Shown here: positions 3,001 through 6,175 of the stretch, piece by piece | Numbering within the stretch: the first letter of the stretch is position 1 | Layout: every line of letters begins with the position of its first letter | From: an uncultured delta proteobacterium | GTDB taxonomy: Bacteria; Desulfobacterota; RBG-13-43-22 | Direction: 5' to 3' | NCBI GenBank assembly: GCA_963790475.1 | Contig: CAWBOS010000012.1 | Location: 800,001 to 864,000 of the forward strand | Length of the DNA stretch: 64,000 bases | Made by a program: the position numbers and the translations under genes | The notes under the pieces: generated by a model | What the model was told of the DNA's origin: nothing | What the model saw: the letters and a program-made list of their open reading frames with translations, nothing else | Databases searched by the model: none

Positions 3001-3679
3001 TAAGCGGCAATATGACGGGGATGATATCGACCTGGAAGCCGTGGTCGAGTATTGGGTGGACCGGAAAGTCGGACTGTCCCCTTCGGAAAAAAACTATACC
3101 CTTCATCAGAAAAAAAAGCGCGACATCGCCGTGGCTTTTCTAATCGATATGAGCCGGAGCACCAAAGGGGCCACCATCGAATTGGAGAAGGAGGCGCTGA
3201 TCATCATGTCCGAGGCCCTGAACGAAGTCGGAGATGCCTTTGCCGTCTTCGGATTTTCAGGCGATAACCGCGATAACGTGGACTATTTCCGGATCAAGGC
3301 TTTTGACGACCCTTATGACAATCCGGTGAAAAAAAGGATCTCGGCCATTACCGACCGCTTCGAAAACCGGGATGGAACGGCGATCCGGCACACCATCCAT
3401 AAACTGAGAAGGAGATCGGAACGGACCAAATTGCTTATTCTATTAAGCGACGGCAAACCGGTGGACAAAGAATATGCCGGCGCCTACGCCATTGAAGACA
3501 CGCGCTTGGCTTTAAAAGAAGCTCGTCATTACGGGATCAGGACATTCTGTATTACCGTAGATCGCACGGCCGCCGAATACCTGCCCCGGATGTACAGCCA
3601 CAGCAGTTGGACCGTCATTGACGAAGTGAACAAACTTCCTGAAAAAATTACCCGTATTTACCGCATACTGACGGCTTGA
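2..3679 (+). CDS. NorD/CbbO-like von Willebrand factor A domain protein with N-terminal alpha-helical tandem repeats (5'-partial)
   Basis: Frame is open from position 2 (FDLLDQALRAVPFSAQLTLALL...). C-terminal VWA MIDAS motif (FLIDMSRST...NRDGTAIRH...LLSDGKP), NorD-like YTDGKKIYLP and YPEW motifs; about 13 repeats of 37/41 aa at the N-terminus. Confidence 0.8.
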   Translation, partial: FDLLDQALRAVPFSAQLTLALLDSASYLIDCLGPTGLDSVWQCALVMAADHTEKGNIILRESPGIVDRLLDFVTPGQVIEIFELGRELAGLGSEATLEFILGSIELARQFDFSILKVVSDAAEEIAASSRNTAADFLKAAPALLSRVDRQGLWKIVDRIVPIARDNWETASRLLLKAPDVIDRLGPEGLEKITDFSAFLARESWSTAVQFLEKCPLLIDELLKQGDASLVFEVCRLGRRIAQTNARLAVSLMSRSSEIIELIGFEGLEKVEELALRIGPENWTTAVSLAEASPLLLERVGYEGLERISGVARNLARENSFAAVSLLEKAPDLIDHLLETGIKNQILPVYELVGEAAAANWRLATALLEKSPELLSKLGAEGLEKLAALLIQTARVNGQIAVRLLDLSPVLLDQLGFEGMEIAAGLISFLAGSDWMAALALLEKSPLIIDRLGQSRERAMAPAVFDLAAKVARTSPAAAAKLLEKSPELIDWVGWEGFGKIAAFIENTAGEDEQKALSFLASESPTWTDFLENIPKGLELKTIQSILSHYLKALLGRRVEIAEAGKAYTDGKKIYLPGRIRDFQNQDDNFMAYKVAATHLEGHLEYGSFEFDLSRIEDYLNRKGFLSAIESRDDESDMDRFAAFFPEPDLARDLFNLMEDWRIEKILQGEYPALGEEIFRINIHRVSKRSSPRKMTNPKQRIVEMIGQSLLAGKDFRDGDPRSLDILQKALEKASLLERPEADVHTAAGIAIDLYLLINEQFQEAYRPAKPLANPLDQNKVAQNIGSFGKTSQQIQDRIRGRRGAGGNRPQTQPEAESGSEGETQPTSSRPGQENIQQRQQAAGKEQRTFQGPAGGGKQESGDADPAGEETGRVGEDMKFDSREKIERLLKALYHERGITPKEIERRFESLNQNEIYLFLNNLEASLAKKTELQSERGSSLYPEWGEDIHDYRANWARIREQTLPGRSLGFYRESLDKHSGLLKKIRREFQMLKPEGFTRRKRQYDGDDIDLEAVVEYWVDRKVGLSPSEKNYTLHQKKKRDIAVAFLIDMSRSTKGATIELEKEALIIMSEALNEVGDAFAVFGFSGDNRDNVDYFRIKAFDDPYDNPVKKRISAITDRFENRDGTAIRHTIHKLRRRSERTKLLILLSDGKPVDKEYAGAYAIEDTRLALKEARHYGIRTFCITVDRTAAEYLPRMYSHSSWTVIDEVNKLPEKITRIYRILTA

Positions 3680-3761
3680 GAGGGTATCATGACCTTTTGG
3701 TTAAAAGAATATATCAGGTGTAAATATATCGTACCAACATAGGTATATGAAAAAGGGCTTT

Positions 3762-3940
3762 TTTCACCAGACGCTGAGGACGCAGAGAAGATAATTTATT
3801 GATTGCCGGTGAGAGGCCGGCAATCAATAAACTTCGCAACCCTCTGGGTATCTTTTTGGCCAAAAGGCCTGAGCAGTGTTGAACAATCCCGCCTCTCACG
3901 GGATTGTTCAACAATAATTCTCTCTGCGTCCTTTGCGTCT
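3762..3940. repeat. Palindromic REP/MITE-like element; its right arm is split by the IS110 and continues at 5541-5551
   Basis: Left arm tttcacc-agacgctgaggacgcagaga is inverse to tctctgcgtcctttgcgtct|ctgcggtgaaa. Two internal perfect 15-bp hairpins (3795-3831, 3877-3913). Confidence 0.8.
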
Positions 3941-4003
3941 GGTTTATTGTTGTCAAGAGTTTTTTAAATATTATTAAACAAACTGGTAACTATCTTAGAG
4001 TGA

Positions 4004-4155
4004 CACCTTGCCCAACTCTGGTAATTTGAGAGTCTCAACAGAGCTCTAACCTTGCTTTATTGGGGTTAAGGTGCAAGCGGAGAGTTATTTAAGCTCTGCG
4101 AGAAGGTCGACTTAGTCGCCTTAGATGCCGCAAACGATAATCTCTCCGCTTACAC
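4004..4155 (-). ncRNA. Candidate IS110 bridge RNA (target-binding loop 4071-4155, donor-binding loop 4004-4073)
   Basis: Two stem/internal-loop/stem hairpins whose loop strands match the target (TTTGCGTCT, CTCTGCG) and donor junction (ATAGCAAGCT, CTGGT). A U-G wobble in the outer stem favours the minus strand. Confidence 0.75.
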
Positions 4156-4166
4156 GCTAAGAAGGT

Positions 4167-5426
4167 CTAAGCAGCCAGTTTTAACGTTGCTCCTTTTGAA
4201 TAATTTTCCATATATTCGTTATGATCACGCACCAAGGCAAAAATAACACCGAGAAGCTTCCGGGCAATGGCTACCAGGGCCTTGATCTTGGGCATTCCTT
4301 GATCCAGATGCCTTTGATAGGCCGTATGCATCACTCCCCCTTTTCGAACCGTATTGATAGCGGCAAAAAAGAGGATTTTCCTAAGAAGCGACCGGCCTCT
4401 TTTGGATATATGACGATTCCCTTGGTGCCTTCCAGAACTGATTTCAAAGAGGTTCAGTCCGGCCAACTTCAGGACTTCAGCCAGCGTATGAAATTTACGA
4501 AAATCCCCGACTTCTCCAATCAGTCCGGCGGCGGTAACCTCTCCTATCCCTTTCAAGGACAGAATCGAATGACTATAGGGGATCTCGGGAAGAAGGGCCG
4601 CCATCTCCTGTTCCGCCTTCTCAATAAACTGGTCAGAAGATTCAATCTCAGAAAGAAGTTCTCGTATCTCAAAAAGAATCGCCTTGCGGCCTTCTTGAAG
4701 ACCTACGGAATGGCCAGCGGCCGCATAAAGGGCCGGGGCTCGCTCTTTATCCAGCTTCCCTCGGCTAACCCGTCTCAGCGTGGCCCTCAAGGTCCCAAGA
4801 CCACATTGGATAATATCTTCCGGGCACGGATAATGCCGCAACAGATATTGGGCACTGCGGGTTTTAATATTCTTCATCACTTGCAGAAACTCGGGGAAGA
4901 CAATAAAGACCAAATCCTGAATCTGGTTCAAAAGGCCCGTTCGTCTTCGTATGGCTCTCTCCCTGGCATGGGTCAGTCGGCGAAGTTCAGCTGCCGCGCC
5001 TTCGGGAATGACCACGGTAAGGGCATGACCCAGCTCAATAATATCCGCAATGACTTTGGGATCTTTCCTATCCGTCTTATTGGGCGAGTTACCCTGGACT
5101 TCCTTCAACTTCTTCGTATGCATAGGATTAACCTGAACCAGTGTCACCGGCCGTTTCATCAGAAAATGTTGCAAGGGTTCTCCATAAGACCCGGTGGATT
5201 CAAAACCAACCACGATTTCTTCCAAGTGATTGGCCTCTTTGGCCTCAACCATCCGATTCCAAAATTTCGTAAATCCTTGATCATTATTGAAAAACTCAAA
5301 AGGTTTGATTTCCGTCCGGTCTGGACAGCGGCCATATCCCATATTGGTCGTTTTGCCTATGTCCACGGTACCGATAAGGGTTTTTTCATTGACCTTCTTA
5401 AGTTTTTTTGTTTCAATCTTATTCAT
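4167..5426 (-). CDS. IS110-family DEDD recombinase/transposase
   Basis: RuvC-like DEDD motifs (VDIGK, FESTG, KTDRKD) and Transposase_20 motifs (GIGEVTAAGLIGE, SSGR, ISKRG, VAIARKL). Confidence 0.95.
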   Translation of the reverse strand: MNKIETKKLKKVNEKTLIGTVDIGKTTNMGYGRCPDRTEIKPFEFFNNDQGFTKFWNRMVEAKEANHLEEIVVGFESTGSYGEPLQHFLMKRPVTLVQVNPMHTKKLKEVQGNSPNKTDRKDPKVIADIIELGHALTVVIPEGAAAELRRLTHARERAIRRRTGLLNQIQDLVFIVFPEFLQVMKNIKTRSAQYLLRHYPCPEDIIQCGLGTLRATLRRVSRGKLDKERAPALYAAAGHSVGLQEGRKAILFEIRELLSEIESSDQFIEKAEQEMAALLPEIPYSHSILSLKGIGEVTAAGLIGEVGDFRKFHTLAEVLKLAGLNLFEISSGRHQGNRHISKRGRSLLRKILFFAAINTVRKGGVMHTAYQRHLDQGMPKIKALVAIARKLLGVIFALVRDHNEYMENYSKGATLKLAA

Positions 5427-5499
5427 GGCTATACTCCTTTCCTTGGTTTGGGTTTAACCAACTTGCAAATTGGACCTCAAATCAAGAAAGAGTATAGCC
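5427..5499 (-). promoter_or_regulatory. 5'-UTR hairpin that sequesters the transposase Shine-Dalgarno sequence
   Basis: ggctatactc(c)tttc(c)ttg at 5427-5445 is inverse-complementary to caagaaagagtatagcc at 5483-5499. One arm is the AAGGAGTATAGCC directly before the ATG. Confidence 0.7.
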
Positions 5500-5605
5500 T
5501 TTTTTGTACGGCTTAACTACTTTCTAAAATATAGCAAGCTCTGCGGTGAAATTTCGTGTTTAAAAAAGCGAAATAGATACAAAAAATAAAACTTGGAGGT
5601 GACTT

Positions 5606-6175
5606 ATGGCTAAGGATTCTAAGGAAAAGAAGAAGGAGGCAATTGTCGGAGTGATGAACCAGGCGCGCTCCATGGAGTTGCTGGCAATTAACCAATACAT
5701 GAATCAGCATTACAATCTGGACAATATGGATTACGGAGATCTGGCCGCCAAGGTCAAGCTGATCGCCATCGACGAGATGCGTCATGCCGAGATGTTCGCC
5801 GATCGTATTAAAGAATTAGGCGGGGAGCCGACCGCTGACCCGGCGGGAAAGGTGGAAAAGGGGCAGAAGGTGGAAGCCGTTTTCCCCTTTGATGCTGATC
5901 TGGAAGACCATACCATCGAGCAGTATAACCAGTTTCTTGCCCTCTGCCGAGAAAACGGCGACAGCATCAGTAAGAAGCTTTTTGAAACCATTATCGATGA
6001 AGAACAGATTCATTTTACTTATTTTGACAATATCAAGGACCACATTAAGAATCTGGACGGGACTTATTTAGCCCAGATTGCCGGGACGCCGTCCACTACC
6101 GGTCTGCAGACGCAGGGTTTTGTCGCCAGACGAGGAACGACTGGAACACCGGGAAAGCCCCCGGCAGGGGCCTGA
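5606..6175 (+). CDS. bfr: Bacterioferritin / ferritin-like di-iron protein
   Basis: ELLAINQY, DEMRHAE and DEEQIH ferroxidase motifs; GGAGG RBS. Confidence 0.8.
   Translation: MAKDSKEKKKEAIVGVMNQARSMELLAINQYMNQHYNLDNMDYGDLAAKVKLIAIDEMRHAEMFADRIKELGGEPTADPAGKVEKGQKVEAVFPFDADLEDHTIEQYNQFLALCRENGDSISKKLFETIIDEEQIHFTYFDNIKDHIKNLDGTYLAQIAGTPSTTGLQTQGFVARRGTTGTPGKPPAGA

Follow-up and report, generated by a model that had tools for sequence, protein, structure and literature searches.

The DNA analysed here, a window of 64,000 nt on contig CAWBOS010000012.1 of assembly GCA_963790475.1 (positions 800,001-864,000), carries an IS110-family element with a non-coding 3' end, and the locus raises the question of whether this end encodes an RNA that selects the insertion site. 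All coordinates below are window positions. A preliminary description, made from the letters alone, had read the locus as an IS110 element with a two-loop RNA in its 3' end, target and donor guides and a CT core. This reading is supported by the protein family, the element ends, the RNA structure and the covariation of the guides with the flanking DNA. It is very probable that the element is an IS110-family insertion sequence (IS) that moves by RNA-guided (bridge or seek RNA) recombination, and the guide-flank covariation across dozens of lineages appears, as far as sequences can decide it, to be the decisive support.

Guides of the 3' RNA and their covariation with the flanking DNA

The element occupies window 3941-5538 plus one CT (1,600 bp) and is inserted in a repeat resembling a miniature inverted-repeat transposable element (MITE). 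Its parts and its surroundings are as follows.

3764-3938, plus strand: left part of the 186-bp MITE-like repeat, which has 27 near-full copies in the genome
3932-3938, plus strand: left target half-site TTTGCGT, within the MITE-like repeat
3939-3940, no strand assigned: core dinucleotide CT, left copy (AG in transposase orientation), shared by both junctions in 10 copies
3941-4166, minus strand: 3' non-coding region of 226 nt, forming the element's right end as read along the gene (copy comparison, conserved end motif)
4167-5426, minus strand: DEDD transposase or bridge recombinase, 419 amino acids (aa) (PF01548, PF02371, NF033542, match to IS621)
5427-5538, minus strand: left end of the element in gene orientation, a 112-nt 5' untranslated region (copy comparison)
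5539-5540, no strand assigned: core dinucleotide CT, right copy (comparison of 10 copies)
5541-5549, plus strand: right target half-site CTGCGG with the last bases of the repeat (copy comparison, uninterrupted targets)

A DNA search of the element's own genome (6.34 Mb, 20 contigs) detected 10 copies, each of 1,602 bp when both CT are counted. The flank similarity among them ends precisely between ..GCGTCT and GGTTT on one side and after ..GCAAGCT on the other, and the sole sequence common to both junctions in 10/10 copies is CT. Comparison with uninterrupted targets revealed site-specific insertion with the same core dinucleotide CT at both junctions and with no target duplication. The position, the ends and the CT core given in the preliminary description were confirmed by this comparison; other copies with different ends, which would have spoken against it, were not seen, since all 10 share the same ends.

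The 226-nt region after the stop codon, folded as the minus strand, forms two hairpins (-67.9 kcal/mol, z = -4.06). The following parts were assigned to the predicted RNA.

3996-4159, minus strand: putative bridge (seek) RNA of 164 nt with two stem/internal-loop/stem hairpins (covariance model R1, 170.8 bits)
4076-4150, minus strand: hairpin 1 with the putative target-binding loop (fold, helices 1 and 2), whose loop strands vary between lineages
4126-4134, minus strand: loop 1 5' strand, RNA UUUGCGGCA, predicted to read the half-site TTTGCGT-CT (3932-3940) by pairing with the minus strand
4091-4101, minus strand: loop 1 3' strand, RNA UCGCAG-AG-CUU, predicted to pair with plus-strand CT-CTGCG at 5539-5545, and its CUU with AAG at 5536-5538
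4004-4074, minus strand: hairpin 2 with the putative donor-binding loop (fold, helices 3 and 4)
4049-4058, minus strand: loop 2 5' strand, RNA AAAGCAAGGU, matching the element end ATAGCAAG-CT at 5531-5540
4017-4022, minus strand: loop 2 3' strand, RNA ACC-AG-A, predicted to pair with plus-strand T-CT-GGT at 3938-3943

Relatives were represented by 43 loci from reference genomes (46-67% identity) and 80 loci from metagenome contigs. In the alignment of their 3' regions, the stems and the entire hairpin 2 were conserved, and both strands of loop 1 were hypervariable. RNAalifold recovered both hairpins from 23 sequences, with a compensatory change in 26 of 39 pairs. The covariance model R1, which was built from this 23-sequence alignment, matched exactly the 10 element copies in the own genome and, in 96 of 100 sources, an RNA located immediately 3' of the matched transposase segment on the strand of the gene. 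When 84 distinct orthologues were aligned, 98.6% of the helix cells were paired and 29 of the 39 pairs had changed on both sides (0 of 500 shuffles as high), against 34-49% pairing in slid controls; the alignment had been fitted to R1, which somewhat favours the structure. The two hairpins proposed earlier are thus borne out by the fold and by compensatory change in orthologues, although their limits are slightly narrower than proposed (about 4076-4150 and 4004-4074). R1 found no match in the loci of Lachnospira (L064, 36% identity), E. faecium and Klebsiella plasmids or in a further locus of 26% identity (L063), indicating that it describes this clade only and that any RNA at L064 has diverged.

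All the coordinates and guide matches proposed for the two loops are present in the sequence. The RNA AAAGCAAGGU at 4049-4058 matches ATAGCAAGCT (5531-5540) at 8 of 10 positions, and UUUGCGGCA at 4126-4134 matches TTTGCGTCT (3932-3940) at 7 of 9. Plus-strand TCTGGT is found both at 3938-3943 and at 4017-4022, which gives ACCAGA in the minus-strand RNA. The 10-mer AAGCTCTGCG occurs twice in the window, in loop 1 (4091-4100) and at the right junction (5536-5545); the chance expectation is 0.06, and two or more matches were obtained in 0 of 100 shuffles.

The guides were then compared with the flanks among 124 loci, in which the RNA anchors were located in 105, the left flank in 97 and the right flank in 94. 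The loop-1 3' strand (43 distinct guides) was paired with the six bases left of the core at 214 of 258 positions, against 114.5+-7.5 for shuffled flanks, and the loop-1 5' strand (58 distinct guides) with the seven bases right of the core at 354 of 406, against 228.7+-7.5; in both comparisons 0 of 5000 shuffles were as high. The 5' strand was scored at the better of two registers because the duplex end shifts by one nucleotide between sub-clades. The set restricted to genomes gave 99/114 (shuffles 54.6+-5.8) and 101/112 (69.9+-4.0), with 0 of 20000 as high for either strand. Since the targets of the lineages are unrelated (for example GGGAGGGG, GATTCAAGG and TCTGTGAG), these data indicate true reprogramming of loop 1, and the guide-target covariation that the preliminary description had put forward as a check is present across dozens of lineages. 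In loop 2, the strands AAGCAAG and ACCAG were invariant in the 23-sequence alignment, and the ends that they read are also conserved. Two-strand guides are therefore predicted for both target and donor, the target guides covarying and the donor guides matching conserved ends.

Two cases were seen in which loci within a single genome share the same RNA and differ in their sites. The core-adjacent sites of L032 and L038 differ from that of L033 by two extra G, and L034, L035 and L037 differ from L039 by 2 nt within the guide match. These differences look like tolerated off-target or bulged pairings.

A soil metatranscriptome (run X19) yielded five contigs of close relatives over 3921-4157. The contigs (4067-4157) contain a compensatory A-U to G-C change at 4116/4110 in the inner stem, and they also differ at 4097, inside the 3' guide, so that these relatives would have a different target. 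As evidence of expression, they are a weak hint. Over most of the transposase gene the RNA-library runs X19 and X20 yielded no contigs, a gap that does not count as evidence of absence.

The conserved 3' structure might instead do something else, for example stabilise the 3' end of the mRNA, act in termination or belong to an unrelated regulatory RNA, with the protein alone picking the target and the matches arising from the repetitive target. The target repeat does contain three similar CT(C/T)TGCG units, which inflate single-sequence matches, and the RNA evidence from X19 is weak, the role of the RNA being known here from the sequence alone. However, the loop strands change with the flanks (43 and 58 distinct guides for unrelated targets, a pairing that no shuffle reached), the stems are held constant by compensatory changes, and elsewhere in the window the loop-1 10-mer is found only at the junction. 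This explanation is strongly disfavoured, and we consider it very improbable.

Several other points weigh against RNA-guided recombination. Rfam 15 gave no family at E <= 1 over 3600-5800, and within the element a consensus promoter scan of the minus strand gave no sigma-70-like site. The X19 contigs are RNA-library assemblies of relatives, without ends or strand, and possibly derive from contaminating DNA. As for the guides, the register of the loop-1 5' guide moves 1-2 nt between sub-clades, this strand mismatches its own 10 sites at the core-adjacent base (RNA G opposite A) and at one core base, and in no case does the loop-2 5' strand pair with the first base of the core. The CUU triplet of loop 1 is conserved only and does not covary; it cannot do so because the element end is invariant. 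Finally, the formation of a circle is argued from analogy with other elements.

Transposase, landing site and expression of the element

The 419-aa protein contains both domains of the IS110 family in Pfam, DEDD_Tnp_IS110 (PF01548, E 2.5e-24) and Transposase_20 (PF02371, E 1.6e-20), and it scored 218 bits with the NCBIfam model NF033542 'IS110 family RNA-guided transposase', for which the cut-off is 140. Its similarity to the structures of IS621 (PDB 8wt6, E 4.4e-8) and ISCro4 (E 1e-5) is weak. Here and below, known systems are described from parts of six sources (PMC11208160, PMC11187229, PMC11208158, PMC12288879, PMC13626964 and 10.1101/2024.06.21.599552). Mapping onto the catalytic residues of IS621, as identified in PMC11208158, revealed that 18-19 of 19 clade members share the D-E-D-D and Ser residues D22, E76, D119, D122 and S331 (in an S331-G332 motif). 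The protein is 416-421 aa long in 18 of the 19 aligned members, and the translation of the remaining one (L055) has 391 aa. The recombinase had been called relatively long, and it is, yet 419 aa lies inside the range of 395-455 aa known for transposases of the IS110 subgroup (PMC11187229, section 6).

At least 3,937 proteins were found at E <= 1e-10 when 8,000 candidates were scored, and among the matches listed 120 of 120 were at least 69% identical. Where their sources name them, they are called only 'transposase' or 'IS110 family transposase'. The clade comprises hundreds of 90%-identity clusters from sediment and soil metagenomes, mostly labelled Desulfobacterota- or Nitrospirota-like. In a tblastn search against plasmids, full-length alignment was obtained only to Firmicutes IS110-family genes, and the genes of Klebsiella and E. 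coli aligned in the C-terminal domain only. The nearest plasmid homologue (36% identity, 429 aa) is L064 (locus positions 1201-2490), from plasmid NZ_CP085937.1 of Lachnospira eligens; the element there has a left end similar to AG-CTTCCTGTATAAT, a short 5' non-coding end and at least 430 nt of non-coding DNA 3' of the gene. The L064 element appears to be inserted within a coding sequence.

In gene orientation, the right-end motif TTGAC(A/T)-N6-AACC-AG is conserved in every relative in which the end was located, and the left-end motif AG-CTTGCTAT in all relatives. Exact inverted repeats between the terminal 50 nt of the two sides reach 5 nt at best, a length equalled in 196 of 200 shuffles, and the longest end inverted repeats of the relatives are 4-8 nt. 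The absence of obvious sub-terminal inverted repeats, as stated previously, holds for the 7-17-bp repeats of the IS1111 type, but a short AATA...TATT pair adjoins the donor site and reaches 5-8 bp (TATTG.. / ..CAATA) in some relatives.

The 10 copies differ at a single position, 4532, where C in the window copy encodes Ala299, the consensus residue of the clade (16 of 19), and T in the nine other copies encodes Thr299. This suggests that the nine descended from one mutated copy. The DNA runs X1 and X2 likewise have T at this position. In these two runs the element was present, but neither an empty-site joint nor a circle joint was seen, and the only joint listed in their data (4157 to 4270, one contig, side 21) resembles a diverged relative. 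The ten near-identical copies together with the intact gene indicate that the element is recently active and autonomous.

The insertion site is the terminal inverted repeat of the 186-bp MITE-like repeat (3764-3940 plus 5541-5549). This repeat has terminal inverted repeats of about 27 nt, of which one begins at 3764 and its mirror is 3905-3940 plus 5541-5549, two internal hairpins and, as noted above, 27 near-full genomic copies. Among the 45 repeat ends listed, eight carry the IS and 37 are uninterrupted; the latter mostly read ..TTTGCGGCT followed by TTGCGGTGA.., and as uninterrupted copies of the target they confirm the ends and the CT core of the element. Two of the 10 element copies lie in flanks that were unmatched by the repeat query. 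The flank of one, C11:34614, has another hairpin, which we read as the other arm of the MITE-like repeat. The other, C6:14550, is outside any repeat, and its site still reads TTTGCGTCT followed by CTGTGT. The recognised unit is thus a sequence of about 16 bp and not the MITE-like repeat itself. At the orthologous locus, congener G004 carries the repeat the other way round and lacks the IS, and congener G011 lacks both; from these differences the MITE-like repeat itself seems to be mobile.

Three further features bear on expression.

3951-3956, minus strand: putative -35 box TTGACA (plus strand TGTCAA), in the right end in gene orientation
5528-5533, minus strand: putative -10 box TATATT (plus strand AATATA), in the left end in gene orientation
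5427-5499, minus strand: leader hairpin over the ribosome-binding site (-33.4 kcal/mol, z = -4.75)

Joining of the ends would form a TTGACA-17-TATATT promoter directed at the gene. A -35-like box, a 17-nt spacer and a -10-like box were found in 26 of 26 distinct elements, with exact TTGACA and TATATT in 15 and close variants in the other 11. Promoters at the circle junction are described for IS621, ISEc11 and ISEc21 in the literature cited above. The leader hairpin pairs GGCUAUACUC with GGAGUAUAGCC and covers the GGAG ribosome-binding site up to the base before ATG. Its arms, GGCTATACTC and GGAG(T/C)ATAGCC, are conserved across relatives, and it is probably a translational brake on the transposase. 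The only terminator-like site from the consensus scan falls in the flanking repeat. No promoter for the RNA was found inside the element; the transposase transcript would contain the RNA in its 3' part, from which it would be released by cleavage.

The minus strand would accordingly provide a 112-nt leader, a 419-aa DEDD/Ser recombinase and a 164-nt two-loop RNA in the 3' non-coding end. The loop-1 5' strand UUUGCGGCA has the sense of plus-strand TTTGCGT-CT and would pair with the opposite strand, the loop-1 3' strand UCGCAG-AG would pair with plus-strand CT-CTGCG across the core, and the CUU that follows could pair only with AAG, the element's own end, after strand exchange. Loop 2 would read the abutted ends, with AGCAAG..U on ..AGCAAG-CT and ACC-AG on CT-GGT, and its final A could pair only with the target base 5' of CT, again after exchange. 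Recombination would occur at the CT core without target duplication. Excision would yield a circle in which the junction promoter drives the leader, the transposase and the 3' RNA as one transcript, from which the RNA would then be excised. The circle, RNA processing, RNA-protein binding and the order of strand exchange are inferred by analogy with IS621, ISEc11 and ISEc21 (parts of PMC11208160, PMC11208158 and PMC11187229).

Handshake bases and the use of target sites

IS621 has two bases beside the 3' guides that do not pair with the partner DNA until strands have been exchanged and that promote the exchange; handshake pairing before exchange blocks recombination (PMC11208158, section 11; PMC13626964). 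In the present clade, the loop-2 base after ACCAG corresponded to the first target base in 58 of 68 distinct combinations of guide and flank (32.4 expected), and the second base after ACCAG gave no signal (23/68). Among 43 distinct guides, 25 have CTT and 40 have C-N-T as the loop-1 triplet that follows the core, the middle base being frequently unpaired; the element end is always CTT. The 3-nt handshake proposed in the preliminary description is therefore plausible as a conserved triplet, but it does not covary, and the handshake that covaries is the single nucleotide in loop 2. Within the limits of sequence comparison, this 1-nt donor-loop handshake is demonstrated.

The occupied sites follow the handshake base rather than the guide. 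The repeat-end consensus TTTGCGG-CT is a better fit for the loop-1 5' guide UUUGCGG-C-A than are the used sites TTTGCGT-CT. Of 99 uninterrupted target-like sites, 36 have G immediately 5' of CT, 28 have C, 21 have T and 14 have A, yet 10/10 insertions have T there, and T pairs with the loop-2 handshake base A. The 18 perfect sites for the loop-1 guide, TTTGCGGCT followed by TTGCGG, are unoccupied. By simple arithmetic, the chance of drawing ten T in succession at random from 109 sites of which 31 have T is ~3e-6. These data suggest, on the basis of one genome, that handshake pairing limits target use in vivo.

The preference for T might instead come from a protein contact, from a more accessible sub-family of the repeat or from loss at G sites, and the loop-2 base would then have no part in it. 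The pattern is known from one genome only, and sites of the T and G types may differ in other respects. Across the clade, guide and handshake agree in 51 of 57 clear cases, and the six conflicts are rare and split, three following the handshake only, one the guide only and two neither. On the other hand, neither the base composition of the uninterrupted sites nor the guide, which would pair best with the G sites, accounts for ten T; the loop-2 A pairs with T only; and the IS621 precedent, in which handshake pairing raises recombination after exchange and blocks it before (PMC11208158; PMC13626964), points the same way. We regard an origin of the T preference outside the handshake as possible but unlikely. 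The insertions at T sites only, next to 36 empty sites of the G type, offer a testable hint on handshake pairing.

Comparison with known systems

The recombinase combines DEDD and Ser as in IS621 and ISCro4. As in IS621, one RNA presents two simple internal loops, in which the 5' strands read in the sense of left half-site and core and the 3' strands would pair with core and right half-site, and handshake bases lie 3' of the right guides. A CT core (in the plus-strand frame of the window), a target in a genomic repeat and a junction promoter are also common to both. In contrast to IS621, where the RNA precedes the gene, the RNA of this element follows it, and with respect to the CT core both gene and RNA have the opposite orientation. 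The protein, at 419 aa, is longer by about 90 aa (the IS621 chain has 328 and ISCro4 341). The handshake, which is 2 + 2 in IS621, comprises 3 nt in the target loop (C-N-U) and a single nucleotide in the donor loop, and the first core base is never paired by the 5' strand of the donor loop. Because the gene and the RNA are on the other strand, a reading along the gene gives a 3' RNA, an AG core and a guide order opposite to that of IS621. A 3' RNA with such a guide order is the IS1111 arrangement (PMC11208160, section 12; PMC11187229, sections 6, 9 and 12).

This raises the question of whether we are dealing with an ordinary IS1111-group element that has a 3' seekRNA, shortened subterminal repeats and no distinct architecture. 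Like ISEc11, ISKpn4 and ISPa11 of that group, as described in PMC11187229, the element has its long non-coding region and RNA 3' of the transposase (226 nt 3' against 112 nt 5'), a guide complementary to the top strand 5' of one complementary to the bottom strand, which is opposite to ISEc21 (sections 9 and 12), site-specific insertion without duplication and a junction promoter. Moreover, several relatives have a short TATT(G)../..(C)AATA inverted repeat at a fixed place beside the donor site. However, the 7-17-bp subterminal repeat of the IS1111 group is absent, the 5 nt found at best being matched by nearly all shuffles, whereas another element in the same genome (3 copies, 370 aa) has one of 10 bp. 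The transposase has 419 aa instead of 330-350, and full-length plasmid alignments were obtained only to Firmicutes IS110-family genes. Both guide pairs lie in simple internal loops like those of IS621, whereas many IS1111 RNAs reportedly keep their donor guides in a multi-loop. A plain IS1111 assignment therefore seems doubtful to us, although it deserves consideration.

The 370-aa element just mentioned is an unrelated second member of the IS110 family (C15:361362-362438, C11:181642-182718 and C12:1489040-1490116). Its 5' end measures 104 nt and its 3' non-coding end 344 nt. With its 10-bp subterminal inverted repeat ATGGCTGACA / TGTCAGCCAT, it resembles a classical IS1111-type element beside a hairpin target. 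Two copies of a third IS110-family element were also seen (C1:240553-241554 and C13:479339-480340; 356 aa, with 172-nt 5' and 441-nt 3' non-coding ends). IS110-family genes that look broken were seen at C12:171633-172630 and C12:1483202-1484063.

Compared with IS110 elements in the strict sense, the ends and the protein agree, with no or a 2-3-bp subterminal repeat and a transposase within 315-455 aa (PMC11208160, section 12; PMC11187229, section 6), but the bridge RNA is not in the left end upstream of the gene, where the 112 nt hold only the hairpin over the ribosome-binding site. Bridge or seek RNAs encoded at the 3' end are standard in IS1111 and have been noted in some IS110-type elements (PMC11187229), and Siddiquee et al. 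(PMC11187229, section 6) mention IS110-type elements with a downstream non-coding region. The present clade shares with these exceptions the range of 395-455 aa, the lack of a long subterminal repeat and the 3' non-coding region, and it fits their description, judged by that description only; in the sections of PMC11187229 concerned, no RNA, guides or targets were found described for them. The family features are thus mixed, the RNA position and the guide order being IS1111-like and the protein length and the absence of a 7-17-bp repeat being IS110-like.

The kind of target has parallels. IS4321 and IS5075 reportedly have targets inside terminal inverted repeats of other mobile elements; here the target is likewise a terminal repeat, of a MITE-like element, and target sequence and host differ. 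ISPpu9 and ISPpu10 are described as targeting repetitive extragenic palindromic (REP) repeats, with crossover at an AG dinucleotide in ISPpu9. The bridge RNA of ISPpu9, unlike the present one, lies upstream and has a strong native promoter, and its target sequence and host are different. In the parts of the literature covered by our search no description of the clade was found, and supplements (PMC11208160 Supplementary Table 5, PMC11187229 Supplementary Fig. 2) may list members.

For annotation, the analysis explains a 10-copy repeat and identifies the MITE-like element as its landing pad. With 10 near-identical copies and intact catalytic residues, the locus represents a clean, evidently active bridge-recombinase system, in which the sequence suffices to write out the RNA with its guides, the core, the donor and the natural target, and for which the relatives supply about 60 natural guide variants. 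It is a candidate orthologue for work on programmable recombination, and its relatives form a data set on the guide rules of 3'-encoded bridge RNAs, which are far less studied than IS621. Tentatively, and with more doubt than confidence, this large and so far uncharacterised clade might represent a third architecture of the IS110 superfamily, in which a long IS110-type recombinase and IS110-type ends are combined with an IS621-like 3' RNA inverted to the core, and in which the donor-loop handshake base, not the target-loop guide base, selects the repeat copies used here. If so, the genome would offer a natural experiment on handshake base versus guide base. Measured against the known systems, the element adds a new and well-supported member, or at most a sub-variant, to a kind known since 2024, and it is not a new mechanism.

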